The notes below the pieces were generated by a model, which did not search any database, was not told the origin of the DNA, and worked only from the letters and a program-made list of their open reading frames with translations. A DNA stretch of 64,000 bases from Balanoglossus misakiensis. Its lineage: Eukaryota; Animalia; Hemichordata. Positions within the stretch are counted from its first letter, which is position 1, and every line of letters starts with the position of its first letter. The position numbers and the translations under genes are program-made. Shown here in pieces: positions 34,330 to 64,000 of the stretch. Location of the stretch: assembly GCA_040954595.2 (NCBI GenBank), contig CM082585.2, forward strand, positions 2,758,902-2,822,901, read 5' to 3'.

Positions 34330-34880
34330 TTCATCCCTCTGGTCACAGAAGCATCGTCTGGCGTCGTTACAAGTTTAAGTTCATCCCTCCAGTACAGTAT
34401 TAGGTGGCGGCGGCGTTACAAGTATTAAGTTCATCCCTCCAGTACAGTATTAGGTGGCGGCGGCGTTACAAGTATTAAGTTCATCCCTCCAGTACAGTAT
34501 TAGGTGGCGGCGTCGTTACAAGTATTAAGTTCATCCCTCCAGTACAGTATTAGGTGGCGGCGTCGTTACAAGTATTAAGTTCATCCCTCCAGTACAGTAT
34601 TAGGTGGCGGCGTCGTTACAAGTATTAAGTTCATCTCTCCAGTACAGTATTAGTTGGCGGCGTCGTTACAAGTATTAAGTTCATCCCTCCAGTACAGTAT
34701 TAGGTGGCGGCGTCGTTACAAGTATTAAGTTCATCCCTCCAGTACAGTATTAGGTGGCGGCGTCGTTACAAGTATTAAGTTCATCTCTCCAGTACAGTAT
34801 TAGGTGGCGGCGTCGTTACAAGTATTAAGTTCATCTCTCCAGTACAGTATTAGGTGGCGGCGTCGTTACAAATATTACAC
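34330..34880. repeat. 50-bp minisatellite, about 10 near-identical copies plus diverged flanking copies
   Basis: aagttcatccctccagtacagtattaggtggcggcgtcgttacaagtatt repeated head to tail. Confidence 0.95.
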
Positions 34881-38281: not shown

Positions 38282-41200
38282 TTAATATAAGAATCCTTTG
38301 GAATCAGTCTGCATTTTCTCGGCAGATTTTTATTGAAAATAATAGTTTTATCGACAGTCACAAGCTGAGTACAACCAGAGTTTTGATCGGATTGTTTATT
38401 TACAAAAAATATGGAAAAGTCCAAACAAGCATAAAAAATAGAAAATTTATGATATGAGCTCAAAACATGCAGGACTTTGAAGTCGTCATGCATACAAATT
38501 TATAAAGCAATTTGCCCAGTAGTTGATGAGTTTAGACCAATTTAACGTTTTTCAAGCTCATTTGCACATTTTTGGCCATGACAACTTAAACAAAATTATA
38601 TCTACAGAACAGCCTTTACACTCCAAATATTGCGGCTATAAGTTTTTGTTGTGGATGGACATAGATACAGAAGCAGCTGAATCGCATAAGGTCCCAGTGG
38701 TATACACATATATTGAATGGGGCCTACAAAGATTGACTAAATTTACAATCAATCTGACAAGTAGTTTCAAACAATTTTTGATGAAAAGTTGCAAAATTTC
38801 CCAAAAGTTTCACCAAATTTCACACCAACAGTTTACTTAGGTTTACACCCCTCGCCTGAGTAGGAACATACCTTCCAAATTTCAAAGCTATCTGACAAAA
38901 AGTTTCAGAAAAACGATTTTCGACTCGGAATGGCAAAAATTGACCAAATATTACAAATATGCAAAACTGGCAACAATTTGCGCCAAACTAACTAAGATCA
39001 CAAAATGAAGGAAAAAAATCTCCAATGAGTTGAAATGAGAAATCCATGTACACAAACATTTGTGAAATACTTCCCCTATACCCTTAATACAATTAGGTAC
39101 CCTATTCAAATAGTCATAATCAACCCACTTCTTGATCGTGGAGGACAGCACTACATAAAGGTTACCAAGTGGAGAATATTCATCCGACAAGTGATTATTA
39201 GAGGTGTGCATAATAAACCAACGGTGGATTGCTGCCCCAATAAAATTGAGAGGGTGAATTAACTATTTGATTAAAAACAGTAACATATAAACTGGCTATG
39301 AAGCATGTATACAACAAGTTGTGGTTACCGAAAAAAGGTACTTGACGGGGCCGCAAGGGTCTTTAACATAGGGTCCAAGGTCTTCTCCCCCTCCTGCACA
39401 GCCTAATGATGACCATTTAAGACAGTCCACCTGTGAATCAAATATATGTGCATGTTTATAAGTAACCAATCACAAACTTGCATTATGTCATACTAATAAG
39501 TCAAAATATGCAGAACATGGTATAATGTAGGGTCAAGGCAGTGTTGTGACAATGCATAACAATAGAATACTTAGCAGATAAATCTGTGAAACAGCAATTT
39601 TGAAACTCCATTTACATCTGACTAAGTAATAGTACTGCAGAGTATAGAAGCTCCATATGGGTATTCTCTTACATGGCAATCAGGTGACAAATGATATTTA
39701 TGTGTAAACAACAAAAACATGCACACAGACTTAATAACACTGTACCTAAAACATACCCACCCATGGACGGCAAACAAATAATTAAATTCAAGGCGCCTAT
39801 ATACAATTATAGCTATGGGTAATTCTGCCAATTCTAAATGTGTCCAAACTGAATTTATGTCCAGTTCATTCACCTCATCATAATCACATTACAGGAAATC
39901 AATAATGCCCTAAAAAAGCAAATATAGATGAACTCATGCTTACCAGAAAGTAGTCTTAACCAAGCTTCAGCGCACAGGAGAACGAGAAACCCTGGACCAG
40001 TTGAAATTGCGACAATCATGGCTTCCATCTGTGAATGAAATATGCATAGCAGTTAGTAACAAATCATAAACCTGTAGGTCGCAATATATGGGATGTGATA
40101 TAAGGGAGTGTTGAGAATATACTTCCCAAGGAATTGAGGTGGCTGTAGGATTTCCAGGGGGCCATCGATTTTTTTACATGAGAAATTGGGGGGGGGGGGC
40201 ACATAACACCAGACTTTTAGGGATGACTATGAAAAAATAGCGTCAAGGACACTGTGGTCCCATTTGAGGATTACACGGAATTAGTTATAGACAAGAATAA
40301 AAATCACATGCGACACTTGCAAGCAGATATGACCTAACCATATATAAATATGAAAATGTAAAAAAATTAACAAGGACCATGCCCAATAGACTGTCATGTG
40401 TCATGGCAGTCTTACAAGTGATGCAAGAAAAATTTATGTTTGACCAAAAATTGTGTGTAGAAACACACATGACAAGCAACTTCTTACAGTCAGCCCTTGG
40501 ACAGACTGACAGACATTCAATAGCTAATGGTCTCTGTAACAGCTGGCCTATTAAGTTATGTAAACATGTAGTGTAAACAGTCTCGGGGTACAAATACCTT
40601 GTAAACAGTAACTTTCAATGCAACTGGACATGAGTTTAGAAGATTTGCTAACCAAAATCAATAATTTGCAAAAAACTCGCTAAATATTTGTTCAAAAGTG
40701 GCAAAAACACATACAAGCAAATATCACCAAAATTGTTCAAAATCCTAACTTCAATCACCACAAGGAACATGCCTGCCAAAAAGCGAATCAATCAAAGCAA
40801 TCTGACAAGCGGTTTCAGAGGGGAAAAATAACAAAAAAATTATCATCAAAATTATAAATATGTAATTTTTTGCAATAATTTGAACAAAACCATGGTTGCT
40901 CAGACAACCTATAAGAAGCTTCATACTAAATTTCAAAGAAGTAGGCCGATCACTTTCAGAAATGAAGATTTTTTACCAATAATGTTGAAAAATTAATATA
41001 AACAAATGCATCAAAAATAGAAAATCAATATTAGCTCTAAACATACAGGACTGTTTGAGGTAGACATAAGGTACCTGCATACCAATTTCCAAATTAATCT
41101 GATTAGTAGTTGGTGAGTTTGAGTTTTGACCCATTTCAAATTTTTCCACCTAATTTGCATATTTTTTAAAGTCAATGACAACTCCATTTGAAGAAACTCC

Positions 41201-44200
41201 CTTTCACAGCCCAGCATGCATCTACACACCAAATATCAAGGTGATACACGCAGCGGTTTTCAAGTTTTTGATGTGGACGGATATACAGACATACATCCAT
41301 CCATACATACAGACGCAACTGATTCCATTAGGTCCCAAATGGGACCTAAAAGTTCAAAGCAACCTGACAAGCGCTTTCAGAGAAAAAAGTTTTTGATAAA
41401 AATTGTACAAAAATTCCCCAATAACACAAGCACGCAATTTTAAGCATATTTTACATCTTACTTGGGTTACCCCCTAGGAATCTGCGTACCAAATTTCAAA
41501 GCATTCTGAGCAAAAATGGCAAAAATTGTTCAAAATTAAAAATGCCAATTTTACAACAATTTCGATTTGAACAAAACTATGGTAACTCGGACCACCTATA
41601 GGCAGCTTCATACTATATTTTGAAGGAGTCAGTCTATCGCTTTCAGAAATTAAGATGTTTTTACCAATAATGCAGAAAAAGACAAAACGATAAAAAATAG
41701 AAAATTCATAATATTAGCTCAAACCTACAGGACAGTATGGCGTTTATTGACATATTTATATGAATATGGATAGCGTATGATGGGGGAGGGAGTATAAATT
41801 CTGAGGGTGTCATCAATTTTTTGTCATAACTTTTGGGGGGCATATAAAAAAATAACCTAAAATGTAGGAAATCCTACACCCCCCCCCCAAGCTTTCATTC
41901 TTGCCAACAACTTTTTATAAAGGCCTCTGCAGTTTTGAAAGAAAGATTGCCTGCTATGTTAGACTATCAATCTACAGAGGGGATGAAAAATCCTATGTGA
42001 AGTGTCCAGTTTTTGATCAACTTCCGTAAGTTTCAACAGGTAAAAATATACCCGTAAATGTTTATCAACTTCACTACGTCTGAAACAGTATGCTTGCAAA
42101 TGTATTAATATAGTCAGATAACATGAATAGTGAAGATAGCAAAACAAACAGGTTTATGCTTATGGCCATACCTACTGTTAGCGATTGAGATGTTGTACAT
42201 AGCAAATTATTGTTTGGAGTTATGATCAACATGTTTTTATTGCATAAAGTCTCTTTATTGCATGTTTCGTTTTACTCTGGAGAGAAATCTGTCCAAAGAC
42301 GTTTACAGACTTGATGGGGATGATTTTGAATAGTGTTCTCAAAAACCTGCAATTTCATGCCCTATATTATGAAGTTGAGGAGGGGGTTGTATTCCTAGTA
42401 GGATGTTGAAATCACTGGAGAGAAACCATGTCAGTATAAAAAATTGCTAGGGGTGGTATCAAAGTTTGAAGATATCCAACATGATAAAATCAGTGTCCAC
42501 ACAAGTTTTAAGCAGCTTGCAGGACTGTAAATAGCAAGTAATTCAAGTGTGTGTTTTTCAACCCAACATAACAAGTGGACTGATGAACTGACTAATGATC
42601 TCTGAAATGCCTAAATGTTTTTGGACATTGGCTAATCAAGGGGCTAAAAGTGTCTAATGGGAGACCTGTTCGAGACGATTTTGTGATATCAAGAAACCAT
42701 GGAATACCTGCTCAAAAATTTTGAGTGACCTGCCACTGGGTAATTCAAAATAGAATAGCTGGTGGTCTGTGTAAAAGCTGGCATATTAAATTTACGTAAA
42801 CATGTGGTGAATACAGTCTAAGTTGGGTATACCATCACCTTGTTAACATACAGTAACTTTCAAAGAAACTGGGCAATTGGTTCAAGAGAAGATTTGCTAT
42901 CCAAAAACAAAGAATTTATAACAAAACTACCTAAATATTAAAAACCAGACTTTAATAAAAGTCGCACATACAGGTACATGTGTTATGAAATTGTAAACTA
43001 ACTTCCAAAGCAATCAGAAAAAATAGTATTACCCCTAGGAATATTCCTACCAAATCAAAAGAACAGTTTCAAAGAAAAACACATTTGTTCAAAAGTGGCA
43101 AAAACACAAATATGCAAAAATCACTATAATTGTACACCATCTTATTTTAATCACTACAAGGAACATTTCTGCCAAAGTTTGAGATTTGGGGACCTAACCC
43201 ACCATAAATTGCAACAGAATTTTTTTCTTCAGAATATATTTTGGAGAGGTGTCTAGATTAATTGAACCCGAATCCACCTTGTAGAAATATTTCTAATTTG
43301 CATACATTTAATATTGAAAATTTTGGGGCCAAATATCAAGAAATAAACACGACCTTTTCTATGATTTTAAAGTATAACAATATTTCATGTACATTAAGAA
43401 CCATCTTGAAGTAATATTTGACATGGGCAGATTTCATAATTTGCATAAATTCAATATGCTGAACAGTATTCCTAGAGTCCCATATTTGGGCTGTATATTG
43501 GGTATTACACAAGCTATTTTAGTGTTTTTATTCAAAACTATCTCTATGACATTTGGAACAATTTTGAAAAAAAAAAAAAAGTTTACGTTTGCACTTTATA
43601 TTTTGAATAAATTCAATATGGCCACCAAATGAATGTTCTACAGCTTATCATACTCCAGCATATGTAATATAACCTCATACTAAATTTAGAAGGATTCAGA
43701 CTATCGCTTTCAGAAGTGAAGATTTTTTTTGCCAATAATGTGGAAAAAGAAAAAAAAATTAATAAACATTAGAAAATTCATAATATTAGCTCAAAACATA
43801 CATGACTGTATGGGTTCATTGACATACCAATTTTCAGATCAATCTGACCAGTGGTTGTCGAGTTTCTGACTTTTGACCAAATTTCTCATTTTCACAGGTA
43901 ATACTTTCGGCAATGACAACCTCATTTGAACAAAATCCCATCTACAGCCCCGACTGCATCTACACACTAAATACGGAAGTGATACGCGCAGCGGTTTTCA
44001 TCCATTCACTCCATACATACAAATGCAACTGATTCCTCGGGTCCCAATCATATACATGCACATAAACCAAATGGGACCTAAAAATTGCTCCAAAATTATA
44101 AATACCCAAATTTTGGCAATAATTTAAACAAAACTAAGGTTGGTAACACAGATCACCTATGAAGCTTCATACTAATTATCAAACAAGTCAGCTGATCAAT

Positions 44201-44807
44201 TCCAGAAAAGTAGATTTTTTACTGCTAATGTGGAAAGAAACAAAAAATGCATAAAAAAAAATCACATTATTATAGTCAGGTGGAGATTTGAGAAATTGTG
44301 ACCCCCTCTGGCATTTTTTGGTACAAGCAAACCAAATATGTTTTTTGGTCAATTCGACTACGCTGATTTCGAAAATGCCTGTTCCCAAAAGATCTTTTTG
44401 AGATAAGAGCCTCGTTTTGGCAAATCAAAATGGTCGCCAAGGATCGCAATTCTCACATGAATAGCATCAAAGAAATGTTCACGTACCTCCTTAAACAATG
44501 AAACTAAACTACATGTTTACATCAACAACTTTTTTGGTTGTATAAACACAAAATAGCAACAATAAAACAATAATTATGCAAAAATTTGCATATTGTATGA
44601 ATAATTCGTTGATTTTTGGCTACCTAATAATAATAAAGCTAGGTGTAACAGTACATGTACTGAAAACTCACAAGCATTGGAAAAAATTACCTTTTCTTTA
44701 TTTTAATAAAGGACTTAAACCTTGTTCAAAACAATACTTCAAGTGTGAAGTTCATTTTGAGACAAGAGCCTCGATGTGGCAATTCAATATGGCCGTCTAA
44801 AGCCCCG

Positions 44808-47013
44808 TAGTGGAGCGGCCAAACCCTAATTTTCATAGCGATTGTGCATTTTGTGATAAAAGCACCAAACTTGGCTCAGATGTGTGTTAATGTGTACTAA
44901 ATAAATTCAGATAGGGAGCCACTAAATATCTGTTGATGAGTTTCCATGGCAACCAATTTTTCAAAATGGCCACCAATACAGATAATTTCACCCACCAAAT
45001 AACATCTGCAAACACCAAAATAAATTTAGATTACTATATTTGATACAAGGAACTGTGGAAAGAATGATTTGCAAAGATATTATGGTTACTAAACTACTTA
45101 TAGGGGTAAGTAAGTTATCAAAACACAATTTAAAGGCACAACTTTTAATCCCTTTCGGATTAATAGGTGCTCCTCTAGAAGTCAAACCATACTGTCTATG
45201 GTCAAACATTAGGCTAATTGCGATATTTAACTTGCAGTACGTAAATTACACATATGAATCACAACAGTTTACCACCTTAGCTAATGATAATCATATAAAC
45301 AGATCACCGATATATTCGAATTGCACACGGATGTGGGCTTGGCTTACTCGTGACTGGTAAAATTTCCTTATCAACTTGATAGGAGAGTCCACTGCCCGAA
45401 ATAGACGTTGATCCAAACTGAGTCCGCGGTCGTCGCGTTTATTGGTCGACAGACATAGGGCCTCAAACGCAATGCAATCTAAATGGACCCCGGGTAACGA
45501 ACCACGCGGCTTTGTTTCGACCACAATCGCCACCGCAGCGTTGACAACGTTTTTTCGGGGCGTTAATGTTTGTCAAAATGCCATAGGAAATTAAAGAAAC
45601 TTAAGTCAAATTGCTGAAACGTTAATAATCGACCATATGTCTTGATACTTTAGATCATGTATCAGTTCCACTCCAGCAATTTTGGCGACTGTTAACAGAG
45701 TTGACCAAAAGATAAATGGTGTCTATGATTCCAAACTCATAAAAATTACACCGGAGGACACAACATTATTTTATTTGTCGAGAATAGTGTCCATCATGCC
45801 ATAAATATTGTCAAAAATGTGTGTTAATTATAGAAACCCAACTAAATATACAAGCAGTTGGCCTTTAGATTGGTAAATGGAAAAACAGGTCTTATTGCAA
45901 TTTTCTGGGATTAGGTGCCCCAAGGCTCCCAACAAGTCACTTGGAATGTACTTCCATTCTAATATCTCAATGTGTAAAGATCTGACTTTGCAAGAGATAT
46001 TACGGAAAACTTCATTTCATTTAATAGCATGAAGTAAGCGAAATCTTACTCTTTACAGAAAAGCTGTGATCCTGAAGACTTTTGGTGTTTTGAAGCTTAT
46101 TTTCACTTTATCATTTTATTCTTTTGGGGGTTCACAAATACACAAAATAACATGTCAAAATAGAACTGCTGACTATCATCAAGGTGTGATTAAAATTATC
46201 GATAACATGAGCAATACAAAGCACTTCAAGCGACTTCATCAAAACGCTTTCCGAAGGACAAGTATTGGATGAAAAGTTTGAAACAGATTTTGATTTTGAT
46301 TCCTAACATCTATCTATGTACATGCACCCTAGACATAGTTAGTTTCTATAGTAACTTTAACAAACCAATCGACTGTCATGATACTGGATTTCTGCCATCA
46401 TTTTATGGGGAAGTGATTCTTTATCTGCATGAATCATTTGATGAAGATAAAATAGAAAAGCTGGATTCTGCACTGATTCAAACTGGTCAGATCAATTTAT
46501 AAGGTTGAGAAACAAGATGCCGTTTTTTCCTGGGTTGACTAAATTTGGAATTTTGTTCATCAAAGATATTTTTATGGGGAAAATAACGAATCAACTGAGC
46601 TTTACTTGTTAAACTTTTATCACAAAATGCCCAAATGTTACGAAAATTGTGTTTATGCCAGGCCACTATTATAATATATATATGGTTATACAGTGTTTTA
46701 AATAAGTTTGTTGTAACCGGGGTTATTACCAAACTTGAATTTGTTTAGCGACTGAATCTCGATCCTGTATTTACCCCTATAACTAGTTTAGTGATGATAT
46801 ATATTTTGAAAATTTGAGCAGTTTCTTGTTTCAAATATTGTAATATGAATTTATTGTGGTGTTTTATAATTGTTATTTTGCGGGTGAGATTATCTGTATT
46901 GGCGGCCATTTCGCAAAAATGAAAAAAATGATTGCCATGGAAACTCATCAACAGATATTGTGGCTCGCTATCTGAATTTGTTTAGTACACATTAACGCAC
47001 ATCTGAGCCAAGT
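44808..47013. mobile_element. Second Academ-like non-autonomous element (TAGTGGAGCGGC family), right end truncated, nested in 44273-48539
   Basis: Closely similar to 53087-55120; long imperfect TIR (44870-45010 vs 46870-47012). Confidence 0.78.
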
Positions 47014-47829
47014 ACGACACCCAAGTGGATTAAACATACATGTATATATGTTGCCTCACTGACACAATCTTCACTTTGCACACAGTATCATATATAAAAA
47101 CGTAATAAAAATACACATTACTCTTTACTTATGAAGAGAAATTGTTGTTAGAGACCGGGTTTCAATAAAACACCGAGGACGTCGGGCCATCAGTGTGCAT
47201 TCAACGTCTTATAACTAAGCATGAATATACGGTGCTGGCATAATGTGAGTGTGGCCATACGATGCTTTCGCTATTAATGAACAACTTGTACGTTAACAAA
47301 TGCCAGTTTTGTTGGCAAAAAGTATGTTTTTGGCTTTTCACAACATTTAACATACATTCATAGTTCAATAACTTGTGAATTGTGGACCTAAACGTTCATA
47401 CGTTCAATGTTCTGGTGTTTTTTTAAACGGAGCGATCGGTCACGATGTTACCAACGAGCATGTACAGTCTAAACTAAATCCTCGTTGTGTATGTTTCTTT
47501 GTTTGTTTTTTGTTGTTTTTTACATGCTATTACATAGAAAATATGAAAAGTTTCATTTCAGTTATTCATTAAAATGCAAACATTTGCCAAAAAACATGTG
47601 AATAGACACCTCACAGGCCATAGTCGTATCATTAGCTTTCAATTGTCAATTTTAGCATGACATCGTGAGTAATTAAGCTAATTTTGCATATTTTCCATGC
47701 TGCTCCTTGTCTGACAAGGTAATCGATTGCATATTTGAATTCCTTGACCCTGAAAACATTGCAATAGACACCTCACTTAACACTGTTGGCTCTCTTTTAT
47801 AGACCATTGATTTTAGATGGGCGTGTCAC

Positions 47830-48535
47830 CTAATTAACATAAATTAGCATTTTACCAATTCACAAAATGTTTCTAAATTAAAAAAATTGTTTAAAAATAT
47901 TTAAATGAATATAAGAATATGATTTCAATAGACTATTATGGTGTTGACCTGTGATATTGCACCATAATGGCTACAAACAGCGTTTTCTTTTAGGTATTTT
48001 GAAATTATAACGTCACAAATTAATTTGCCATTTTCGACATGAAAACGTGAAAAGAATGTTTGGGAACAGGCAAATTCGAAATCAGCGTATTCGAAATATC
48101 CAAAAACAACTTGTTCCCAGCTTGTACCAAAAAAAATGCCTGACATGCTTTTAAAATGCTCATTTTCTGAAATTTCCACCTGGACCTAATTAACATAAAT
48201 TAGCATTTTACCAATTCACAAAATGTTTCTAAATTAAAAAAATTGTTTAAAAATATTTAAATGAATATAAGAATATGATTTCAATAGACTATTATGGTGT
48301 TGACCTGTGATATTGCACCATAATGGCTACAAACAGCGTTTTCTTTTAGGTATTTTGAAATTATGCGACACAAATTAATTTGCCATTTTCGACATGAAAA
48401 CGTGAAAAGAATTTTTGGGAACAGGCAAATTCGAAATCAGCGTATTCGAAATATCCAAAAACAACTTGTTCCCAGCTTGTACCAAAAAATGCCTGACATG
48501 CTTTTAAAATGCTCATTTTCTGAAATTTCCACCTG
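47830..48535. repeat. ~356-bp direct duplication of the right subterminal region of the 44273-48539 element
   Basis: cctaattaacataaattagc...gaaatttccacctg at 47829-48182 and again at 48185-48535. Confidence 0.9.
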
Positions 48536-51500
48536 ACTATTAGCCCACAACATATAGAATTGTGTAAGGTTAACGTAAGGTACATGCATACCAATTTTCA
48601 ATTTTGAAAGCAATTTGCCCAGTAGTTGTCGAGTTTCAGAGTTGACGAATTAGACACTTTCCCAGTTAATTTGCATATTTTGGCAATGACAACTTCATTT
48701 AGACAAACTCCCATCTACCCCTGTGCCTGCATCTCCACACTAAATATCAAGGTTTCCAAGTGTTTGATGTTGACGGACATACAAACATCCATACATACAT
48801 CAGGTGCAACTGATCCAATAAGGTCCCATGGTATAAATACAAATACCAAATGGGACCTAACAATTCTGATAAAATGCCTACATAGCTAGTGTAAAAACAC
48901 TTGTACCTTCAACGCCCTTGGACAACACATTTTTGTAACTTCCCCAGATCAATGGCTAATATGACTTTCCAAAGGCGACTAAAATTTGGGGGTGGGTGGG
49001 TGGGGGGGGGGGCCTGATGCAAATTCTGATACATGTACTTCATGATTTAGAGATATGGTGAAAATCCTGTCAACCAAATTACAGGGAAATCAGATTTTCC
49101 ATGTAAAATCATATCACCCAAAAATGTCAAAAGTGTCGAAAATAATTTTGAAACAAAAAGTCTACTCAAAATCATACCAAAATTTAAAGTTTAATGCAGT
49201 TGGGCAAGTAATTTGAGAATGAGGAAATTTACAAAATAATTTATAAATAATTTACAAATGCCGCACACAAACTTACAATTACTACCATGGTACCAGCAGA
49301 GACATTAGCATCGAGCAATCCCCAAGATATACATGACATGGTCTAATTACAAATATTGAATATGTAAAATAAGTACACTTCCAGTCTTTCAGTACAGTCA
49401 GCTGCTTGTGAACAATTTGCAGGTAGGTATTTCATCAAATTTACAGACCAAGTCATGCCTATACAATTCTCCCCTGAAATACGTTTTAAGCTACCCTAAG
49501 TGAGTGATGAAAATCTCATATTGTCGACAATTTCAAGATGGCCGATTTTTGCCATGTTAAAGAAATGGGAGTTCATAAGCTAAAGTGATAATGGGTCATT
49601 CTTGAACTTTTTAACAGAAAAAATAACAAAATGTGAAAAAAGTTTAATGAGTTTAATATGCTAACTACAGAGAACGACATGTTTGACCAAAGCATGAAAT
49701 ACAAAAAATGTATCATTTCTTCCATCTCTTACTACAGTGGGTTGTGGACTTTTCGCCCAGAATGCAATGTGATTTGACCCCCTAGCGCATAGTGAAAACC
49801 TATTTAAGGCAGCCAGAATGTTCTGCACTGTATGACGGGAAACATTTGTAAAGTCATGGCTAGCGTGGGCTGGTAAGTTTATGGGACTCTCCATGATAAC
49901 CGATTGTGGCTTGCCACCACCATAATTTTGAAAGGGCGACTTCACTGTTTGATGGGAAAAGGTAGCATTTACAAACAAGCTATGGAGCATGTATACAGCA
50001 AGTTGTGCTTACCGGAAAGCGGTCTTGGAAAAGGCCTAGGTATTCTCTTCCTCCTCCGGCATACGTTGAAATGCTGTGTTTAAGACTGTGAATCAAATAT
50101 ATGCAAATATTAATTAGTAACCAATCAACTTTGTTTTAGAATTATGTGGGCCATACTAATTAGTGAAAATATGCAAAACATGGTATAATGTACGGTCAGA
50201 CTGTGCTGCGATAATGTACAACAGTGGAATACGTCGATCTTAAAACTCCATTTACATCAGTACTGCAGTAAAGTGGTCCACATGGGTATATACCCCAAAC
50301 ATTGCAATTAGGTGACAACTGAAACTGACATGATATCAGATTCTGTAAATGACAGAAGGTGTACACGCACTTTGACATCTATGTAACACTGTACAATGAT
50401 TTCTTTGTTTGTTGTGAAAATGAAACTTGCATTTGATCCATCTCACTTTTCATACAACTGATTAGCATAAGAATGTACATTGTTGGCAATTATAAAACAT
50501 TTATTTAAGTATAGAAAAGTAAGCCTTAAAATTTAAACTTTAAATATCAGTATACTAAAATGTTTCAAACGTGGCTGTCAGTATATCTCATGGCGTGGTG
50601 GCGGAAGTAGATGTTGTTACCAGGGAAGACATATTGAACACAGACAAGCCCAATAGTCGCTTGGTGATTTTTTATCTTTATAAAGATTCTCAAAACTTTT
50701 TGTGCATTTAGTAGCTTTGAGCAAGTTTCTGGTACTGATCAGATTTCCGAATTCAGGACTGCGCTTCTCTGGCTTTGGTCACCATCAGCCAATGTGATCT
50801 TACGCACACATTTTTGAAAAAAAAATCCAGCCTGTTTGTGTCATGATTTATATTTTTCTTTGCGGCCTAAGGTATTGTTTTATTTCACTCTAAACAACAT
50901 TACTTTCCTTCATGTGTCTATACATAATAATAGATCTCTTAGCCAGTTTGATTAAGCATGGTGTTGGACTAGCACACTTTCAGCCAAAGTTACGGTATCT
51001 CCCTGTGTATTGATATGGGAGTAATTTCTAGCTATATGGTTAAGGAAATGCATCCAAATTTAATTTATGCATCACATGAAGATTTGAACTTGACCATTTA
51101 ATTCATGTCATCACGATCATATCACAGGCAATCGAGGCCAGAATTCGAAGGGAAAAAAAAAGTATTGATAACTGGAATGTGTAAATTAGTTCGTAGACAT
51201 ACAAATTGCTTCCTATTGCTTCGGTTGCAACGCCCGATAAAAGCAAATATATAGCAAGTCATGCTTACCATTGAGCGGTCTTAAACTCGCCCCAGACGAG
51301 GAAGAGAATCCTGAGTTGAAATGCAGGCAATCTCAGGCAGCATCTGAGAATCAAATAGACCTAGAAGTTAGTAACCAGTCATAGTAGCTCTAAGTTGGAT
51401 GTAAAAGTCTAAGTTGGGTGTACCAACTCACCTTGTTAACAGTAACTTTCAAAGAAACTGGGCAATTGGTTCAAGAGAAGATTTGCTATCCAAAAACAAA

Positions 51501-53086
51501 GAATTTACAACAAAACTACCTAAATATTAAAAACCAGACTTTAATAAAAGTCGCACATACAGGTACATGTGTTATGAAATTGTAAACCAACTTCTAAAGC
51601 AATCAGAAAAAAAATTTGGGTTACCCCTAGGAATTTTCCTACCATATTTCAAAGCCATCAAAAAAGCAGTTTCAAAGAAAAACACATTTGTTCAAAAGTG
51701 GCAAAAACACAAATATGCAAAAATCACTATAATTGTACACCATCTTACTTCAATCACTACAAGGAACATTCCTGCCAAAGTTCAAAGCAACCAGACAACG
51801 GTTTGAACGTTTTCAGAGAAAACAGTTTTTGACAAAGATTGCATAAAATATCTCCAAATAAGACAAAGATGGAGTTTTAACCATTTTTAAGACATCTCAC
51901 TTGGGTTACCCCTGGGAATCTGCCTACCAAATTGCAAAGCATTCTGACCAAAATTGGCATAATTGCTCAAAATTATAAATATGCCTATTTTACAACAATC
52001 TGAACAAAAAATATGGTAACTCGGACCACCTATAGGAAGCTTCATACTAAATTTCGAAGGAGTCGGACTATCGCTTTCAGAAGTGAAGATTTTTTTACCA
52101 ATAATTTGGAAAAAGACAAAAAATTAATAAACATTAGAAAATTCATAATATTAGCTCAAAGCATACAGGACTGTATGGGGTTTATTGACATACAAGTTTT
52201 CAGATCAATCTGACCAGTGGTTGCTGAGTTTCTGACTTTTGACCAATTTCACATTTTCACAGGTAATACTTTTGGCAATGGCAACCTCATTTGAACAAAA
52301 TCCCATCTACAGCCCCGCCTTCATCTACACACTAAATATGGAAGTGATATGCACAGCAGTTTTCATCCGCTCATCCATACATACAGATGCAAGTCATTCC
52401 ATAAGGTCCCAATCGTATATATATATATACACAAACCAAATGCCATGGGACCTAAAAATTGCTACACAATTAAAATACACAAATTTTGCAACACTTTAAT
52501 CAAAACTATGGTAACTCAGATCACCTGCGAAGCTTCATACTAAATTTCAAACAAGTCAGCTGATCAATTCCAGAAAAGTAGATTTTTTACCGATAATGTG
52601 GAGACAAAAAATGCATAAACATTGGAAATTCACATAAGCTGACAACATAAAGGGCTGTGTGAGGTTACTATAAGGTACATGCATATCAATTTTCAATTTT
52701 TAAAGCAATTTACCCAGTAGTTTTTGAGTTCCTCAGTTTTGACAAATTTGACACTTTCCCAGCTCACTTGCATATTTTGGCAATGACAACTTCATTTAGA
52801 CAAACTCCCCCCTACTGCCTTGCCTGCATCTCCACACTAAATATCAAGGTCACACGCCAGTAGTTTCCAAATGTTTGATGTTGATGGACATACAGACAAA
52901 CATCCATACAGACATCCATACATACAGGTGCAACTGATCCTGTAAGGTCCCATGGTATAAATACATATACCAAACGGGACCTAATAATTTTAATAAAATG
53001 CCTTCATAGCTAGTGTAAAAACCACTTGTACCTTCAACGTGCTTGGACAACACATTTTTGTAACTTTCCCAGATCAATGGCTAATA

Positions 53087-55492
53087 TAGTGGAGCGGCCA
53101 AACCCTAATTTTCATAGCGATTGTGCATTTTGTGATAAAAGCACCAAACTTGGCTCAGATGTGTGTTAATGTGAAGTAAACAAATTCAGATAGCGAGCCA
53201 CTAAATATCTGTTGATGAGTTTCCATGGCAACCGATTTTTCAAAATGGCCACCAATACAGATAATTTCACCCACCAAATAACAACTGTAAACACCAAAAT
53301 AAATTTAGATTACTATATTTGATACAAGGAACTGTGTAAAGAATGATTTGCAAAGATATTATGGTTACTAAACTACTTATAGGGGTAAGTAAGTTATCAA
53401 AACACAATTTAAAGGCGCAACTTTTAATCCCTTTGTTCTCGGATTAATAGGTGCTCCTCTAGAAGTGAAACCATACTGTCTATCGTCAAACATTAGGCTA
53501 ATTGCGATATTTAACTTGCAGTACATAAATTACACGTCATATGAATCACAACAGTTTACCACCTTAGCCAATGATAATCATATTAACAGATCACCGATAT
53601 ATTCGAATTGCACACGGATGCGGGCTTAGCTTACTCGTGACTGGTAAAATTTCCTTATCAACTGAGAGTCCACTGCCCGAAATAGACGTTGATCCAAACT
53701 GAGTCCACGGTCGTCGCGTTTATTGGTCGACAGACATACACATAGGGCCTCAAACGCAATGCAATCTAAATGGACCCCGGGTAACAAACCATGCGAAAAT
53801 GTTGGCTTTGTTTCGACCACAATCGCGACCGCAGCGTTGACAACGTTTTTTCGGGGCGTTGATGTTTGTCAAAATGCCATAGGAAATTAAAGAAACTTAA
53901 GTCGAATTGCTGAAACGTTAATAATCGACCATATGTCTTGATACTTTAGATCATGTATCAGTTCGACTCCAGCAATTTTGGCGACTGTTAACAGAGTTGA
54001 CCAAAAGATAAATGGCGTCTATGATTCCAAACTCATAAAAATTACACCGGGGGACACAACATTATTTTATTTGTCGAGAATAGTGTTCATCATGCCATAA
54101 ATATTGTCAAAAATGTGTGTTAATTATAAAAACCCAACTAAAGATACAAGCAGTTGGCCTTTAGATTGTCATGATACTGGCTTTCTGCCATCATTTTATG
54201 GGGAAGTGATTCTTTATTTGCATGAATCATTTGATGAAGATAAAATAGAAAAGCTAGATTCTGCACTGATTCAAACTGGTCAGATCAATTTATAAGGTTG
54301 AGAAACGAGATGCCGTTTTTTCCTGGGTTGCCTAAATTTGGAATTTTGTTCATGAAAGATATTTTTATGGGGAAAATAACGAATCAACTGAGGTTTACCT
54401 GTTAAACTTTTATCACAAAATGCCCAAATTTTATGAAAATGTTGTTTATGCCAGGTCACTATTATAATATATCTATGGTTATACAGTGTTTTAACTAAGT
54501 TTCTTGTAATCGTGGTTATTACCAAACTTGAATTTCTTTAGCGACTGAATCTCGATCCTGTATTTACCCCTTTAACTAGTTTAGTGATGATAAAAATTTT
54601 AGAAATTACTCTTTGAGCAGTTTCTTGTTTCAAATTTTGTAATATGAATTTACTTTGGAGTTTTATAATTGTTATTTTGTGGGTGAGATTATCTGTATTG
54701 GCGGCCATTTTGAAAAAATGAAAAAATAGTTGCCATGGAAACTCATCAACAGATATTGTGGCTCACTATCTGAATTTGTTTAGTTAAGCAATAAAACACC
54801 CCCAGCCATGGTATATCACGAGATTTTGACCAGTTCACGACATATACGCACGAGCGATAGCGAGTGCGTATATGGAGTTGAACTGGTCAAAATCGAGTGG
54901 TATACCATGGCTGGGGGTGTTTTATTGCTATTATATTATGCCAGTATATTGAAACTTTGCATAAAACATTTTAAAAAGGCATTTTCTTTAACTATGATAT
55001 ATGACTGTGGTATATGGCTAATATATCACGGTCACGTGTCGTGTCTCGACCAATCAAATAGCGTGATTTACACCATCAATATACTGGTATAATATAATAC
55101 ACATTAATGCACATAGCCAAGTTTGGTGCTTGTATCACAAAATGCACAATCGATTTGTTATGCCGCTGTACTGTAGACGTTAAACTGTGTTTTATCCTTT
55201 ATTCTATATTCAGAACTATTTCGGTGACCACAAATACCCTTTCTATAGTTTCTGGTTTCAAATATCCTAATCTGAAAGTACCTTGGTGTTCTTTAGTCGT
55301 TATTTTGTGTGAAAGATTAATGTAGTGGCGGCCATTTTGAAAAATGGTTGCCATGGCTACCCGTTAACAGATATTAAGTGGCTCGCTATCTGAATTTGCT
55401 TAGTACACAGTAACACACATCTGAGCCAAGTTTGGTGTTTTTATCACAAAATGCACAATCGCGATGAAAATTGGGGTTTGGCCGCTCCACTA
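53087..55492. mobile_element. Academ-like non-autonomous element with both ends, TSD ATA
   Basis: TAGTGGAGCGGCCAAAACCCTAATTTTCAT...ATGAAAATTGGGGTTTGGCCGCTCCACTA; ATA at 53084-53086 and 55493-55495; empty site near 48960. Confidence 0.85.
54785..55098. mobile_element. Small hairpin-ended insertion, resembling non-autonomous Crypton-type elements
   Basis: Interrupts tttagt/acacatt, which is contiguous at 46981-46993; contains ~52-bp inverted arms (54785-54836 and 54880-54930); no clear TSD. Family assignment is tentative. Confidence 0.65.
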
Positions 55493-57726
55493 ATACTACA
55501 TGCCAAGGGTGACTAGAATTTTTTTTTTTGGGGGGGGGGGAGGGGGCGATGCAATTCTGATACATGTACTTCATGATTTAGAGATCTGGTGAAAATCCTG
55601 TCAACCGAATTACAGGGAAATCAGATTTTCCATGGAAAATCATTTTACCAAAAAATTTCAAAAAGTGTAGAAAATAAATTTGAAACAGAAAGCCTACTCA
55701 AAATCATACCAAAATTTAAATTTTAATGCAGTTGGGCAAGCAATTTGAGAATGAAGAAACTTAGAAATAATTTATAAATTGAAAATAATTTACAAATGCT
55801 GCACACAAACTTACAATCACTACCATATTACTGTACAAGTTAAAAGGACATTGTACCAGCAGAGACATTGCGATCGAGCAATCCCCAAGATATACATGAC
55901 ATGGTCTAATTACAAATATTGAATATGTAAAATAAGTACACAACACTTCCAGTCTTTCAGTACAGTCAGCTGCTTGTGAACAATTTGCAGGTAGGTATTT
56001 CATCAAATTTACAGACCAAGTCATGCCTATACAATTCTCCCCTGAAATACGTTTTAAGCTACCCTAAGTGAGTGATGAAAATCTCATACGGTCGACAATT
56101 TCAAGATGGCCGATTTTTGCCATGTTAAAGAAATGGGAGTTCATATGCTAAAGTGATGATGGGTCATTCTGGAACTTTTTAACAGAAAAAATAACAAAAT
56201 GTGAAAAACAGTTTAATGGGTTTAATATGCTAACTACAGAGACAGACATGTTTGACCAAAGGAAGTCATGAAATACAGTAAACATATCATTTCTTCTATC
56301 TCTTACTACAGTTGGTTGTGAACTTTTCGCCCAGAATGCAATGGGATTTGACCCCCTAGCGCAAAGTGAAAACCTATTTAAAGCAGCCAGAATTTTCTGC
56401 ATAGTATGACGGAAACATTTGTAAAGTCATGGGTAGCATGGGTTGGCAGGTTTATGGGACCCTGCTCATGTTCCCTCGAATAAAACATGATACATGTTTG
56501 GTGACTTATTATTCTGTATTTTGTCATATTTTCAGATAAATCCCTATCAATCAGTCATATTTGTTCGGCCTTGCTATACAGCGAAATATAAATCTTGTTG
56601 ACTGAAATTGTTGAGGATAGTGTTACATAAAGGTTACCCATTGGAAAATATTAAAATGATTATTAGTGGTGTCCAACTCTTCATGATAACCAGTTGTGGC
56701 TTGCCACCACCATAATTTTGAAAGGGCGACTTCACTGTTTGATGGGAAAAGGTAGCATTTACAAACAAGCTATGGAGCATGTATACAGCAAGTTGTGCTT
56801 ACCGGAAAGCGGTCTTGGATCAGGCCTAGGTATTCTCTCCCTCCTCCGGCATACGTTGAAATGCTGTGTTTAAGACTGTGAATCAAATATATGCATATTA
56901 ATAAGTAACCAATCAACCTTGCTTTAGAATTATGTGGGCAATACTAAATAGTGAAAATATGCAAAACATGGTATAATATAGGGTCAGAAAAAATATCCAG
57001 CCTGTTTGTGTCATGATTTACATTTTTATTTCTGACCTAAATTATTGTTTTTGTCACTTTAAACAACATTACTCATTACTGTCCTTCATAAGTCTAATAT
57101 GATAATAGACTTCTTAGCCAGTTTGATTAAGCATGGTGTTGGACTAGCGCATGTTCAGCCAAAGCTACAGTATCTCCCTGTGTATTGGTATGGGAGTAAT
57201 TTTAGCTATATGTTTAAAGAAATGCATCCAAATGTATTCTATGCTCCATGTGAAGATTTGAACTTGTGAGTTGTCCATTTAATTCATGTCATCACTACCA
57301 TATCACAGGCAATCAAGGCCAGAATTCGAAGGGGAAAAAACAAGTATTGAAAGCTGGAATGTGTAAATTAGTTCGTAGACATACATTGCTTCCTATTGTA
57401 CCGTTTGCAACGCGTGATAAAAGCAAATATATAGCAAGTCATGCTTACCATTGAGCGGTCTTAAACTCGCCTCGGACGAGGAAGAGAATCCCGAGTTGAA
57501 ACGCAGACATTTTCAGGCAGCATCTGTGAATCAAATAGACATAGAAGTTAGTAACCAGTCATAGTAGCTCTGCGTGGCAGGGCTGCGTGTTAACAGCTAT
57601 GCCATAGCTGACACTGGTAGCTTATAACAGTCTCGATGGTGCCGAAAATCTCCCCAACAACAAAACTAATTCTGGTCAGTTTATTCGCTATCGCTTTGCC
57701 TTAAAAGTTATACTGTAGTGTGTTAC

Positions 57727-58149
57727 CACAGGGGGCTCTCCCTCCGCGATTTTATTGTTTGTTTGTTTGTTGTTGTTGTTGTTGTTGTTGTTGATGATTG
57801 GCATTATAAACAAATACATATTTCTTTATTAATAAATATGGTTTGTTGACATGTAAGTGTTAGGGAAAATTCAACGGTTAGCATTAGTGTTGGCACTTTT
57901 TTCGATCCACGGCCCCGGGCATCACTAAGCCACGAAGAGAGGGTGATGCTGGCCGTGGATCGCAATAATGCCAACACTAATACTAACAGTTGAATATACC
58001 ATAACCTGTCAAATATACCCTAATAACCTAACCCTTACATGTCAACAAACCATATTTATTGACAAAGAAATATGTATTTGTTTATAATGCCAATCAACAA
58101 CAACAACAAACAAACACACAATAAAATTGCGGAGGGAGAGCCCCCTGTG
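57727..58149. mobile_element. Fold-back MITE with CA...TG ends and 7-bp TSD (P-element-like)
   Basis: CACAGGGGGCTCTCCCTCCGC...GCGGAGGGAGAGCCCCCTGTG; GTGTTAC at 57720-57726 and 58150-58156; nearly the whole element is an inverted repeat. Confidence 0.85.
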
Positions 58150-61100
58150 GTGTTACGGTACCACCTGCCCCACAATGACAAAGCTGACTCGAGGCCACGA
58201 ACGACGTACAATTTACTCGCACGGTGTAAAACAACGCATGAATTCCATGCGACTGTGAGTTTACTGTTCGGCGCTGTAACGCTTCCCAAAGTCAGAATTT
58301 CGATGTTGGGAAGACACTGTCGCCCTACCACTACCAGTTTTTGCAAGAAGGAGTGTACATGTACTTGTAAAATAACATTAAATGCCATGCTTACCAGAGA
58401 AACGACTTCATCAAGCATGGAGGCGACCGGGACCTCCATGCTTGATGAACGTCGAAGCTGCAATGATTTTTCAAATGCAATGGTCAGCGGTACGAGAACG
58501 AGGCAGCACCTGCTCGTCAATTATGCAAATTAGTTACTACTCAATCAGAATCTTGCTTTCGCATTCTAATTAGTCAAAGTATGCAGTGCAACGTTTGTGT
58601 GCGGGTGGAGAATGCGCCTCGCCAACTGATGAATTCTCTGTCACGGCGTTCTTTGGAAGTGCGATTATGTAACCGATTATCTCATTAGGGACATAGATAA
58701 TATATTTTGTCTTCTTCAATTTGTTTGTACTACGAAAACAATTGCGAAACGAATAGCAAGCGCTTACGCTATGAAACGTAAATAAATATCAGTCATGGCC
58801 ATGTAGAAACGGAACGTCAATCCGCATTTGTCAAAAAATAATAGAAAAGACAAAGAAGCTGAGGGGAATGACCTCTCCGTTCTGACCTATCTGGGGAAGG
58901 CCTATTGCAATACGCAATATGTCAGATCATGCTACCATCCGCCATTCTGATTGGACGAGAGCTCAATCCATCGATACGAAAGTACTCAATAGAGCACTGC
59001 TGAAACTGGCCCTGAACTAATCGCATGCAACAGGGAAAACGCGACCTTTCAAATCAAATAAATACAAAAAATACAGCCAATGAATTTACGGCCGGCCGGT
59101 TTATTTCTTAACTGCTCTATAGGAATTGTTGTCACTGCCATGGACCACTTCGCGGATAGCATAACACAGGGTGTTGTGGGATAGTTTGCGTTCTGAGCGC
59201 GTGCGTTAGCCATGCAGTAGACGCTATGTTGAACGCAAATTATACCATCATGCATTGCAGATACCCTATCCGCGTAGTGGTCTATGCACGATGCATGTCT
59301 TGTCAGTGCGCACTCGACAAATTGGACCGTTTCTATAAAAAAATATGAACTGTGACTTTTGATTTTATTGAGAAATGTCTCTCGAATTAAACCATGTAAC
59401 GTAAATCAAGGAAATGTATTCTGCTAAAGTTGCTCCTGACGGGTTCGCTGAAACATTGTGTTATTGGTAAAATACGTCAAGTGTAAAATATTGAGTTACC
59501 TAATATGATAAAATATCAGATTTATGTGTTTAATCAAGATAGGCCTCTCTTCATATGTTTCATTTATTTGGTTTGAATAAAAGTTATCTGATTCAGTTTC
59601 ATGAAGTATACACGGATTAAATGTTTATCCACTGTAGTGCCACTGAAATGGCTTTCACGTTTGAGACTTCGGGCGGTAATCTTATATTTACTTTCTTCAT
59701 TTCTATTGGAGTAGACTACACCGGGGTCGACCTAAAATATCTATAAGCAATGCGCAAAGGGAGTATTTCAGCCGTGATGACCGGACGATGTCGGACAAAG
59801 TCTACAACTTAATACACGATCACCTCCAATTTGCATATGTCCATAAATGGCTAAACTTGCGTATCCTAGTGTTCTAAAGAACAAATGGTGGCGCTCTTAT
59901 TGTCGCGTGTGCCACCTCCTGAATATTTGTGATTGGCTGTATCTCAATTTGCCATGGTAACTGTAGCTAAATTTGCATAGGTTACCGTATACCTTTAAGG
60001 CACGTCAAGCGTATGTCCTTGTTGGGCTGTCTGACAGGAACGAATCGAGACCCACCGCACAGTCACGCAATAATGAAATCCACATCGCCAAAAACGATGT
60101 TTCACTAGACTCGGGTACATGCAACTATCTCATGCCATTTACAGAATTGAACACCCCAGGCAATGTTACGTGTTGCTCCATGACTGTTGCTCCATGACCA
60201 ACCAAACAGCAAACAACAAACTCATGTCCAAACCAATGACGGTCGCAACTCATTGCATTAAACAATATAGATGGGGATCCCAAAGAATAATTCAAATATA
60301 TTTGCAGAATTGCCACGCAAGTCGAGCATATTGTCCAAATTTAAGCACTCTGCAACTGAAACATAAAACCCAAGCTTTTTACAATACAGGAATTAAAAAT
60401 TCTGATTGAATTAATGCCAACATAAAACGAAAAAAGACAACTCACAAAATGTATATGTAGTGTTTCATGTAGTGTTTTGATCTCAAGAAGACATGAAAAA
60501 ATCGTCGGGGGAAAAGCAGGTGAGAACACCACCTCATTTTTGGGATATGAAATAAAAGTCTATTTTACGGAGACACCTGGTAAAAAGTCCACCCTAGTCT
60601 CAATTTTCCAGACCCCTCTGGGATAGTCGAGTAGTCCATCCCCATGAAACTGCATATTTTAAAATAGCCAAAATGAGTCAATGGGGCATTTTTTCATCCT
60701 ACCTCAACCTTGCTAAGAGTTTCCGTGCCAGTCACCTGCAAAAATTAAATTTACCACGGACAAATTGAAATACAGCCAATCGAAAAAAGTGCGCCACCAC
60801 ATGGTCATTTGAAGACTTTGATGCTCTCTTCTGGCCGTAACCGCATGTGATCCGGAATAAAATTGAGCCTTGATCGCGTTTTTTATTTTATTTTCACCAC
60901 CAACGAAAATCTACGACGGCCCAACCGCAGATTATTGCTGCTCCATACAACAACCGGCTTATACTGTACATAAGTTTTGTGTTCTGGTGGCATTTGCGGG
61001 TCTGAGACGTCATTTCTAGAAGGCCCTATTCGTTTTATACCAATAACTTTTACCACCCATGCTGGATTTTTTACGTTTTCTTTGACGACGCTTGACCCTT

Positions 61101-61420: not shown

Positions 61421-63200
61421 CATGGAAAAACCCCAGGAAACTAAGGGGTACAACAGATTTCCTCCACAATTTACTGGGGTACGTCCATGGAAAAAACAAT
61501 CACCAGGAAAATAAAAAATCCTCCGGCCCCACCCTGGTAGTTAAATCTGAACAGTCCCTAACTTTTGTTTGTTTGTTTGCTTGTTTATTTGTCTGTCTGT
61601 TTGTGTATTCTATATTATGTTATATGAAGCTTCTGCTACATTTTGCATTTCCTTTTGCATAAACAATGACTAAACCGACTGGAGCGCGTTTGGGCGCAGG
61701 ATAGATTTAAGAGTTAATCCATCTGTGTTTACCGGCTAAAACCGTTCGATTTTTGCAACAAGTGAGACCGTAGTAGTAATCCGAAGGCCAGTCAGTGCAT
61801 GTTTGCATGACTGGCGTGTAGTGATACCTACCACAAAATGGTATCGCCCAAATAATGTTTGCCGGAATTTATAAGCCTGGCGCTCTCCTAACAAGTCGTC
61901 ATGTTCGCCCTCGTAGTCATGCTGCCAGTCGGGGAAAATGACGTACTTCATGTAAAAGTTTATAAAAAATAAACCAAATTTCACTGCCATGTATCCCAAA
62001 ACAATTTATGTGACAGATTTTTAAAAAGAACACTAACTTCGGCTAAGGAATGTCAAGTCATAGCTCCGCGTTCAGGTCTGTGTGTTCCCGACGCACCACA
62101 GCCCTGCATAAGGCCCCATAGACAAAACTGGTGCGCCCTCGGTCCGGACCCGGACGCCCGACCGCAGCTTTTTCTGTCGAAATTCGTTTTTATCGAAGCA
62201 AAATCCTTTCCCTTACTACTTCAACCGACCCCAAATATGATGCGTTTAACTTCTTCTAACGTCCATGTAACGCCGGGAACACACAGACCTGCACGCAGAG
62301 CTAGTCAAGTCATGGAAAAACCCCAGGAAACTAAGGGGTACAACAGATTTCCTCCACAATTTACTGGGGTACGTCCATGGAAAAAACAATCACCAGGAAA
62401 ATAAAAAATCCTCCGGCCCCACCCTGGAAGTTAAATCTGAACAGTCCCTAACTTTTGTTTGTTTGTTTGCTTGTTTATTTGTCTGTCTGTTTGTGTATTC
62501 TATATTATGTTATATGAAGCTTCTGCTACATTTTGCATTTCCTTTTGCATAAACAATGACTAAACCGACTGGAGCGCGTTTGGGCGCAGGATAGATTTAA
62601 GAGTTAATCCATCTGTGTTTACCGGCTAAAACCGTTCGATTTTTGCAACAAGTGAGACCGTAGTAGTAATCCGAAGGCCAGTCAGTGCATGTTTGCATGA
62701 CTGGCGTGTAGTGATACCTACCACAAAATGGTATCGCCCAAATAATGTTTGCCGGAATTTATAAGCCTGGCGCTCTCCTAACAAGTCGTCATGTTCGCCC
62801 TCGTAGTCATGCTGCCAGTCGGGGAAAATGACGTACTTCATGTAAAAGTTTATAAAAAATAAACCAAATTTCACTGCCATGTATCCCAAAACAATTTATG
62901 TGACAGATTTTTAAAAAGAACACTAACTTCGGCTAAGGAATGTCAAGTCATAGCTCCGCGTTCAGGTCTGTGTGTTCCCGACGCACCACAGCCCTGCATA
63001 AGGCCCCATAGACAAAACTGGTGCGCCCTCGGTCCGGACCCGGACGCCCGACCGCAGCTTTTTCTGTCGAAATTCGTTTTTATCGAAGCAAAATCCTTTC
63101 CCTTACTACTTCAACCGACCCCAAATATGATGCGTTTAACTTCTTCTAACGTCCCCGTAACGCCGGGAACACACAGACCTGCACGCAGAGCTAGTCAAGT
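61421..63200. repeat. 890-bp near-perfect tandem duplication
   Basis: 61421-62310 repeated at 62311-63200 with only a few differences seen (ctggtag/ctggaag; gtccatg/gtccccg). Confidence 0.97.
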
Positions 63201-63441
63201 CAGTGCACTGTGCAGTCGGTCGGTACACTCTGCTGGTGTATACAAACGATCGTGGCGACAGAATCTCTCCCTGGGACGGCCTTACACAAATTTAATCGAT
63301 TGTCTAACAATTTTACTGCGACTTGTTGTCACGTCTTATACATTTCGTTGACCGGTGGAATATAGAGGTTCAGTCGTCACGCTGAACTGGCTCGAAACCA
63401 TTCCCCACGCTGATTCGACTCTCGCGCCCGGGATATATGTC

Positions 63442-63865: not shown

Positions 63866-64000
63866 GGGACACCCCCTCCCGAACCCACCCCCTTCATTCT
63901 TCGCCACATTTCATTTATTGGCTGGTTTGTCTAGTGTACCAGGGCAGACTACTTGCCACCCCACCCCACCGATGCTTACTTTGAGTGGAGTGTCAACATT

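Follow-up and report, generated by a model that had tools for sequence, protein, structure and literature searches.

Can the two arms of a small-RNA hairpin in an animal be encoded in separate exons and be brought together by splicing? This question is raised by an array of short exon-like units on the minus strand of a 64,000-nucleotide stretch of the genome of the hemichordate Balanoglossus misakiensis (assembly GCA_040954595.2, contig CM082585.2, positions 2,758,902 to 2,822,901; called the window in the following, with positions counted from its first letter). The initial annotation described six such segments, of 75, 73, 75, 73, 85 and 102 nucleotides (nt), arranged as three B/A pairs, and their positions, their lengths and the arm sequences quoted for them are reproduced by our analysis. 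The pairs will be called modules, M1 consisting of B1 and A1, M2 of B2 and A2, and M3 of B3 and A3. Based on the sequence and on folding calculations, we tentatively propose that the array may be a non-coding cluster of hairpins, split by introns, whose spliced RNA feeds Drosha and Dicer and which was built from copies of one short exon cassette, a possibility that we place a little below even.

Intron-split precursors are documented in two plant families (PMC11706861), and engineered ones work in C. elegans (as cited in PMC12219410). If the hairpins of the array are diced, they would represent a class that is missed when annotation folds contiguous genomic DNA, and the small-RNA output would be tied to splicing.

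Exon-like units and their signals

The splice signals claimed for the six segments are borne out on rereading the sequence, since each of them has an acceptor of the form ttt(g/c)attc(a/t)cAG and a G/GTAA donor. The donor reads GTAAGC in five of the six and GTAACC in A3, and every B and A unit combines a branch-like TTACT(A/T)A with the shared acceptor end ATTC(A/T)CAG and the G/GTAA donor. The acceptor pattern has exactly six matches in the 64 kb of the window, one at each unit, compared to an expectation of 0.00 from 100 shuffles. On the minus strand, GGTAAG occurs eight times, six of which are the ends of array units, and three of the five TACTAAC words lie at array units. The intron predicted from the sequence between the two arms is of the GT-AG type with branch-like sites in all three modules.

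A profile of the six units recovers a seventh homologue (E 0.003), which was absent from the initial annotation and is called C0 here. The seven copies found in the window lie on one strand in one array, have been copied together with collinear intron sequence and have no terminal repeats. In the MAFFT alignment their flanks and exon ends can be matched while their middles differ, and the middle of C0 is unrelated to those of both A and B. The description of B and A as two distinct exon types thus has to be given up, as they have flanks and exon-end motifs in common. A derivation of A from the C0 hairpin was also considered and rejected, because positions 46–115 of C0 give z values of only −1.4 to 1.3 against the six other exons.

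The units had further been called micro-exons. They are indeed short, but the label is not appropriate, as the usual micro-exon length cut-offs lie below the 73–115 nt found here. A3 seems to contain an internally duplicated stretch of about 21 nt. The stretch above C0 (positions 58510–60000) is a possible promoter of the array, to judge from its sequence; the G+C content of the window is about 36% outside the 90-nt satellite described at the end.

Table 1. Positions of the array units, their predicted hairpin parts and associated features in the window.
Feature	Position	Strand	Remarks
C0 exon-like unit, 115 nt	58395..58509	-	seventh homologue; donor G/GTAAGC; degenerate acceptor; candidate first exon
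C0 complete hairpin	58403..58454	-	22 predicted pairs, perfect Watson-Crick run of 17, one bulge, 7-nt loop
B1 exon-like unit, 75 nt	57449..57523	-	TACTAAC branch-like site upstream
B1 core-duplex arm	57472..57492	-	exon positions 32-52
B1 upper-stem arm TTAAGAC	57458..57464	-	partner GTCTTAA at start of A; both sides invariant in the three modules
Predicted B1-A1 intron, 573 nt	56876..57448	-	within hairpin loop
A1 exon-like unit, 73 nt	56803..56875	-	
A1 core-duplex arm	56828..56849	-	exon positions 27-48, bulged A at 45
B2 exon-like unit, 75 nt	51269..51343	-	91% identity to B1
Predicted B2-A2 intron, 1183 nt	50086..51268	-	
A2 exon-like unit, 73 nt	50013..50085	-	96% identity to A1
B3 exon-like unit, 85 nt	39944..40028	-	older paralogue
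Predicted B3-A3 intron, 513 nt	39431..39943	-	
A3 exon-like unit, 102 nt	39329..39430	-	donor G/GTAACC; 29 nt longer than A1/A2
CpG-undepleted stretch with CCAAT/ATTGG boxes	58510..60000	-	CpG observed/expected 1.07-1.08, vs 0.3-0.7 around B/A exons
Tandem duplication, M1 and M2 with repeat-filled spacers	42815..57571	-	recent; blocks 84-95% identical
Inverted-repeat element, like a miniature inverted-repeat transposable element (MITE)	57725..58151	.	in C0-B1 intron; outside modules

Predicted hairpins

The centre of each B is complementary to the centre of its A, as had been noted, and the cognate duplexes have calculated energies of −45.8, −47.8 and −65.5 kcal/mol for M1, M2 and M3. When one partner is shuffled, the cognate B:A pairs obtain z values of −3.5, −3.8 and −5.0, while those of the B:B and A:A pairs range from −1.4 to +1.9. 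Folding gives a core duplex of 21–27 base pairs (bp) for each pair, with a bulged A shared by all modules. It also gives a second stem of 7–9 bp, which had been missed and which has the B-A junction at the edge of its loop. The predicted order is thus an imperfect basal stem, the core duplex, an asymmetric unpaired region, and the 7–9 bp stem as a cap. In spliced M1, M2 and M3, the pair probabilities are 0.85, 0.90 and 0.87 for the core duplex and 0.99, 0.97 and 0.73 for the upper stem, and local folding of the seven-exon chain (span 150) yields 0.80–0.91 for the cognate pairs.

The modules had been suggested to give a compact duplex after splicing. A compact hairpin of about 100 nt is indeed predicted for the spliced form, but the core duplex is predicted in unspliced RNA too, with a pair probability of 0.85–0.86 (M1 and M3 were folded), and splicing is therefore not required for its formation. 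What splicing would do is to shrink the loop that separates the core arms from 0.5–1.2 kb to 49, 49 and 59 nt.

The C0 exon contains a hairpin that is not split by an intron. The exon folds with z = −5.5, and none of 200 shuffles folds as well. A short hairpin is also predicted between the C0 acceptor and the opening bases of the C0 exon (around 58520–58495, minus strand), which echoes the upper stem covering the A1 and A2 acceptors.

It should be stressed that, taken alone, a duplex this large is not unusual. Scanned without gaps, the region 32.5–64 kb has seven helices in which at least 17 of 18 positions are paired and whose arms lie 400–1400 nt apart, and only one of the seven is a B/A pair. 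What is above chance is the placement in splice-bounded units and the persistence across copies.

Duplication history

M1 and M2, which are about 90% alike, were carried by a duplication of 6–8 kb, while M3 is an older copy, about 70% alike to them (68–71%). If positions ~32–52 of B are inverted in silico, the B:A alignment score rises from 1.5–6.5 to 39.5–45.5, compared to 24.5–39 for 12 shuffled controls, a test that partly restates the complementarity. The alignments show that the complementary block occupies one and the same position, with collinear flanks on either side, which is what a micro-inversion in a duplicated exon would be expected to give. In this history, an exon would have been duplicated, and an inversion of ~20 nt in the middle of one of the two would have made it complementary to the other; the resulting two-exon module would later have been duplicated twice. 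The array may thus hold a plausible birth route, exon duplication followed by a short inversion, caught at three ages.

Signs of constraint on pairing and splicing

We define the splice flanks as the 45 nt before and the 30 nt after each exon. Relative to M3, 120 of 144 flank positions are identical in M2 (83%) and 122 of 142 in M1 (86%), compared to 288 of 399 and 129 of 180 (72%) in the other alignable intron (Fisher P 0.009 and 0.003 for the excess).

The pairing is also retained. In a hand-set register of 21 columns, 59 of the 63 cells are canonical, with 19, 20 and 20 pairs for cognate M1, M2 and M3 and 17 for the cross pairs with M3. When a perfect duplex is left to decay neutrally, with as much change as is observed, 48–49 ± 3 of 63 cells are still paired (P ≤ 0.0005, in this register), and the neutral expectation is 48–52 overall. 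Columns 18–21 are ambiguous, as MAFFT places a 5-nt gap there, and the test was therefore repeated on the 17 unambiguous columns, where 48 of 51 cells are paired as compared to 40–43 under neutrality (P 0.004–0.020), and with the best 21 of 27 columns allowed, where the simulation gives P 0.024. At all four differences between M1 and M2 the latter is still paired, and at three of them the pairing is kept in both copies. On the spliced strand, G-U columns outnumber A-C columns by 6 to 1 (P 0.06), and the core pair probability is 0.85–0.90 in the sense direction versus 0.61–0.75 in the antisense. In the 7-bp upper stem, none of the 14 positions varies across the modules, for which the chance is 0.72^14 = 0.01.

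Taken at sequence level, this is moderate evidence of selection, and the constraint appears to act on pairing and splicing rather than on the arm sequence. The suggestion that these are tandemly amplified, non-coding two-exon modules that retain their duplex is hence supported by the duplication map, the splice flanks, the pairing above the neutral level and the lack of a coding signal discussed below.

Proposed mechanism

In the mechanism that we propose, a single minus-strand transcript, perhaps starting from the CpG-undepleted, CCAAT-bearing stretch above C0, would be spliced in the order C0-B1-A1-B2-A2-B3-A3. At every B-A junction the joined exons would form a ~100-nt hairpin, in which a basal stem carries a duplex of the length of one small RNA, followed by an unpaired shoulder and a short capping stem, and from which Drosha and Dicer would cut one small RNA duplex. 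Cropping could follow splicing, that is, act once the loop has been cut to its short form. The unsplit C0 hairpin, in the same transcript, would provide a further small RNA. Endogenous small interfering RNAs (siRNAs) from a long hairpin, which had also been suggested, fit poorly, as each duplex is only about one small RNA long.

A more far-reaching version of this proposal, which we regard as somewhat doubtful, is that of a natural animal small-RNA cluster with one hairpin arm per exon of a repeated cassette, whose precursors are assembled by the spliceosome. Alternative joining of B and A (for instance B1-A1, B1-A2 or A1-B2) would then determine the duplexes and small RNAs that are produced, and exon duplication together with micro-inversion would supply new guides.

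The MirGeneDB criteria for a microRNA (miRNA) include an imperfect hairpin with at least 16 paired nt, reads from both arms, 5′ homogeneity and 2-nt offsets (PMC12539619). The predicted spliced hairpins have 19, 20 and 20 pairs in the 21 columns, and C0 has 22. Motifs recognized by the Microprocessor are a basal UG and a downstream CNNC at the usual spacing. A UG is present at exon positions 15–16 in all three B exons, although this motif carries little information.

A number of observations weigh against the proposal. The inter-arm regions, at 49, 49 and 59 nt, lie outside the short-loop range of miRNAs (the C0 loop has 7 nt); the loop typically excised by Dicer has a median of 15 ± 4 nt, and it exceeds 50 nt in 1 of 13,788 deuterostome miRNA homologues (PMC12553114). 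A CNNC at a fitting distance, likewise a low-information motif, is found in only one of the three modules (M3). Among miRNA paralogues, the mature arm and the seed are conserved above the flanks. Here, the arm identities between M2 and M3 are 14 of 21 and 16 of 22, not above the 72% of the intron, and the paralogues thus share no seed. When targets were sought within the window, the best matches of the six arms equalled those of shuffled controls.

The folding results contain further difficulties. The z values of the spliced modules are only −2.6 to −3.4, and in each of the three modules at least one of 200 shuffles folds as well as or better than the real sequence. M2 folds slightly better in the antisense than in the sense orientation (−51.5 vs −49.4). 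With unlimited span, the M1 and M2 arms of the chain exchange partners. Furthermore, the B3:A1 pairing (−35.7) matches that of B1:A1 (−35.3), which means that the case for co-adaptation rests mostly on M3.

As to the signs of selection, the conservation beside the exons is wider than the splice motifs, and gene conversion between copies could yield it too. Homology is ambiguous at columns 18 and 21, which hold two of the three two-sided changes and where MAFFT aligns the bases otherwise, and in the 17 unambiguous columns the pair is kept in one of two such changes. Finally, the comparison involves a single genome with three copies, of which two are young, and its boundaries were set post hoc.

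Alternative explanations

One alternative is that the hairpins are spliced and under selection, but are not diced. They would then have a structural role, in steering each B to its own A through pairing between exons of the pre-mRNA, as a double-stranded RNA platform for ADAR or another protein that binds such RNA, or as an RNase III cleavage signal in transcript maturation. We consider this unlikely. It would accommodate both a structure that is kept without conservation of the arm sequence and a core duplex that forms in the unspliced RNA. It would also give a meaning to the invariant upper stem, which in M1 and M2 takes in the acceptor G and covers the 3′ splice site of A1 and A2, and to the C0 acceptor, which is predicted to lie in a hairpin as well. 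In addition, hairpins at splice junctions are known as RNase III signals from hosts of small nucleolar RNAs (snoRNAs; PMC12508059). In M3, however, the upper-stem arm is displaced by 7 nt into the exon and leaves the splice site uncovered. It also weighs against this alternative that the core duplex is about one small RNA long with an imperfect basal stem, and that the C0 hairpin, too, has 22 bp.

Nor was a hosted snoRNA found by Rfam, by inspection for C/D boxes or by folding. A box C-like RTGATGA is present in all three B-A introns (at ~57295, 51114 and 39881, minus strand), inside a conserved block. No conserved D box was found in these introns, the first CTGA being at +137, +131 and +198 nt and that of M3 not being homologous to the others, and six intron blocks fold no better than shuffles. 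An intronic box C/D or H/ACA snoRNA, or a snoRNA host, was rejected on these grounds together with the Rfam result. With Rfam at the gathering score, the whole window gives no match, and the eight weak matches in 38800–59500 all lie on repeats, none of them on the seven units or the B-A introns.

Another alternative is that the array is a functionless relic. A cassette would have been duplicated, with one micro-inversion, and then spread by segmental duplication together with repeats, and the apparent conservation would be owed to the small number of copies, to gene conversion and to boundaries set post hoc. This too we judge improbable, even though a single inversion event accounts for the complementarity (39.5–45.5 in the in silico test, with the controls at 24.5–39), the modules lie inside repeat-rich tandem duplicates, the exons are conserved no better than the intron and comparable helices are found in the region by chance. 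Neither the rest of the window nor metagenome scans yielded a further homologue; in the latter, the full exon pattern gave no matches and the acceptor pattern alone gave ten, none of them similar beyond the pattern and hence attributed to chance. What speaks against a relic is that only 0.4–2.4% of conservative neutral simulations starting from a perfect duplex reach the observed pairing, and that six of six acceptors and seven of seven donors are intact after ~30% divergence. The excess of G-U over A-C on the spliced strand, the invariance of the upper stem, and the independent, near-perfect hairpin of C0 point in the same direction.

Finally, it is highly improbable that the units are exons encoding a family of small peptides, or that they come from the interior of an unrecognised transposon, with the complementarity being incidental: the region is repeat-rich and M1 and M2 share an open frame of 49 codons over B and A, but six of its nine changed codons are non-synonymous (three are synonymous), indels break the frame in M3, the seven-exon chain has stops in all three frames, and the units lack terminal repeats and were copied with collinear intron. 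The earlier statement that no frame is conserved thus applies to M3 and not to M1 and M2, and the conserved open reading frame (ORF) with codon-pattern substitutions that had been named as evidence against a non-coding array was not found. Searching 88 ORFs of the window against Pfam gives only two matches, both to retrotransposon pieces. Among the 86 ORFs of at least 75 amino acids (aa) outside the satellite and the left-hand retrotransposon, only one has a match, a reverse transcriptase (RT)/RNase H fragment (5945–6652).

Comparison with known systems

The closest counterparts to the proposed intron-split hairpins are the miRNAs of monocot MIR444 and Solanaceae miRtop14, the only such families known to the authors of PMC11706861. 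Here as there, an intron lies between the hairpin arms and splicing gives a compact precursor, although here this is predicted. The difference is that these are plant families with sequenced small RNAs and known targets, while the present case is an animal array of three putative tandem split modules and a predicted unsplit hairpin, all made from one cassette. In C. elegans, a miRNA hairpin into which an intron has been put is still processed (Zhang, Maniar and Fire 2011, as cited in PMC12219410), which shows such processing after intron removal to be within the capacity of the animal machinery. In that case the intron is artificial and the hairpin normal, whereas here the arrangement would be natural and arrayed, with a structured inter-arm region of 49–59 nt. 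In the literature searched, no natural animal intron-split small-RNA precursor was identified, most subscription papers being outside its scope. The EJ-retro-miRs are annotated only in intronless retrocopies (PMC10486083), and the "spliced miRNAs" of bioRxiv 10.1101/125997 are mirtrons.

The long inter-arm region has a parallel in the long invertebrate pre-miRNAs mir-989, mir-375 and mir-12, which need a structured extension and a bulge beside the dicing site (PMC12553114). They share with the fold predicted for the present modules a structured inter-arm region of ~50 nt or more and an unpaired or branched region by the would-be dicing site. However, they belong to conserved seed families and are encoded in contiguous DNA, while the modules have a predicted splice junction in the extension and no conserved seed.

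The hairpin RNAs (hpRNAs) and testis miRNA clusters of Drosophila are young, tandem, fast-diverging hairpins with drifting seeds, and in D. pseudoobscura one multi-exon transcript carries four dissimilar hairpins (PMC12697358; bioRxiv 10.1101/125997). The array resembles them in being young, tandemly duplicated and fast-diverging. The hpRNAs, on the other hand, are extended inverted repeats that give several siRNAs each, compared to 21–27 bp and room for about one small RNA per module here. A hairpin with one arm per exon is not described in the available parts of these two sources. An assignment to the Drosophila-type hpRNAs was rejected, since the core duplexes are 21–27 bp and there is no extended inverted repeat.

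For the structural alternative, the relevant systems are S. pombe snR107-snoU14 and human SNHG25, mixed snoRNA clusters with RNase III signals at splice junctions (PMC12508059). The likeness lies in a hairpin, here a predicted one, across the exon-exon junction of a non-coding precursor with pair-preserving changes, and the difference in that these precursors host an intronic and an exonic snoRNA, none of which is detectable here. We assign the array to none of the families compared in this section.

Other features of the window

A palindromic element at 54787–54929, with 51-nt arms that are 94% complementary, is probably a MITE; it has weak Rfam matches to miRNA families, far below the gathering score. 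Near-identical tandem duplications are found at 61421–63202 (892 nt, 99.7%), 47828–48535 (355 nt, 98%) and 63442–63868 (217 nt, 92%), the first of which may be very recent or an assembly artefact.

The left end of the window (2–4519, plus strand) holds the pol of a Gypsy-type long terminal repeat retrotransposon, with RT, RNase H and integrase and a stop at ~3152–3154. The best relatives of the piece 2–3151 have 59% identity, and named matches, at 54–58%, come from amphioxus, fishes and coral. A second RT/RNase H fragment is at 5945–6655, and a 131-aa open frame at 11537–11932 (plus strand) is protein-like, with no Pfam match. A satellite covers 15 kb (17290–32436), with about 164 copies of a 90-nt unit that are 90–95% alike; it has long open frames on both strands and is probably an ordinary satellite.

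Downstream of the array, two paralogous strong acceptor-like sites at 34909 and 34269 (minus strand) are followed by short frames starting with FIGN. The frame at 34909 runs into a 50-nt tandem repeat (34360–34877), and many AATAAA are present at 34163–33758. Judged from these sequences, the two sites may mark terminal exons, which would belong either to the hairpin transcript or to a different gene.

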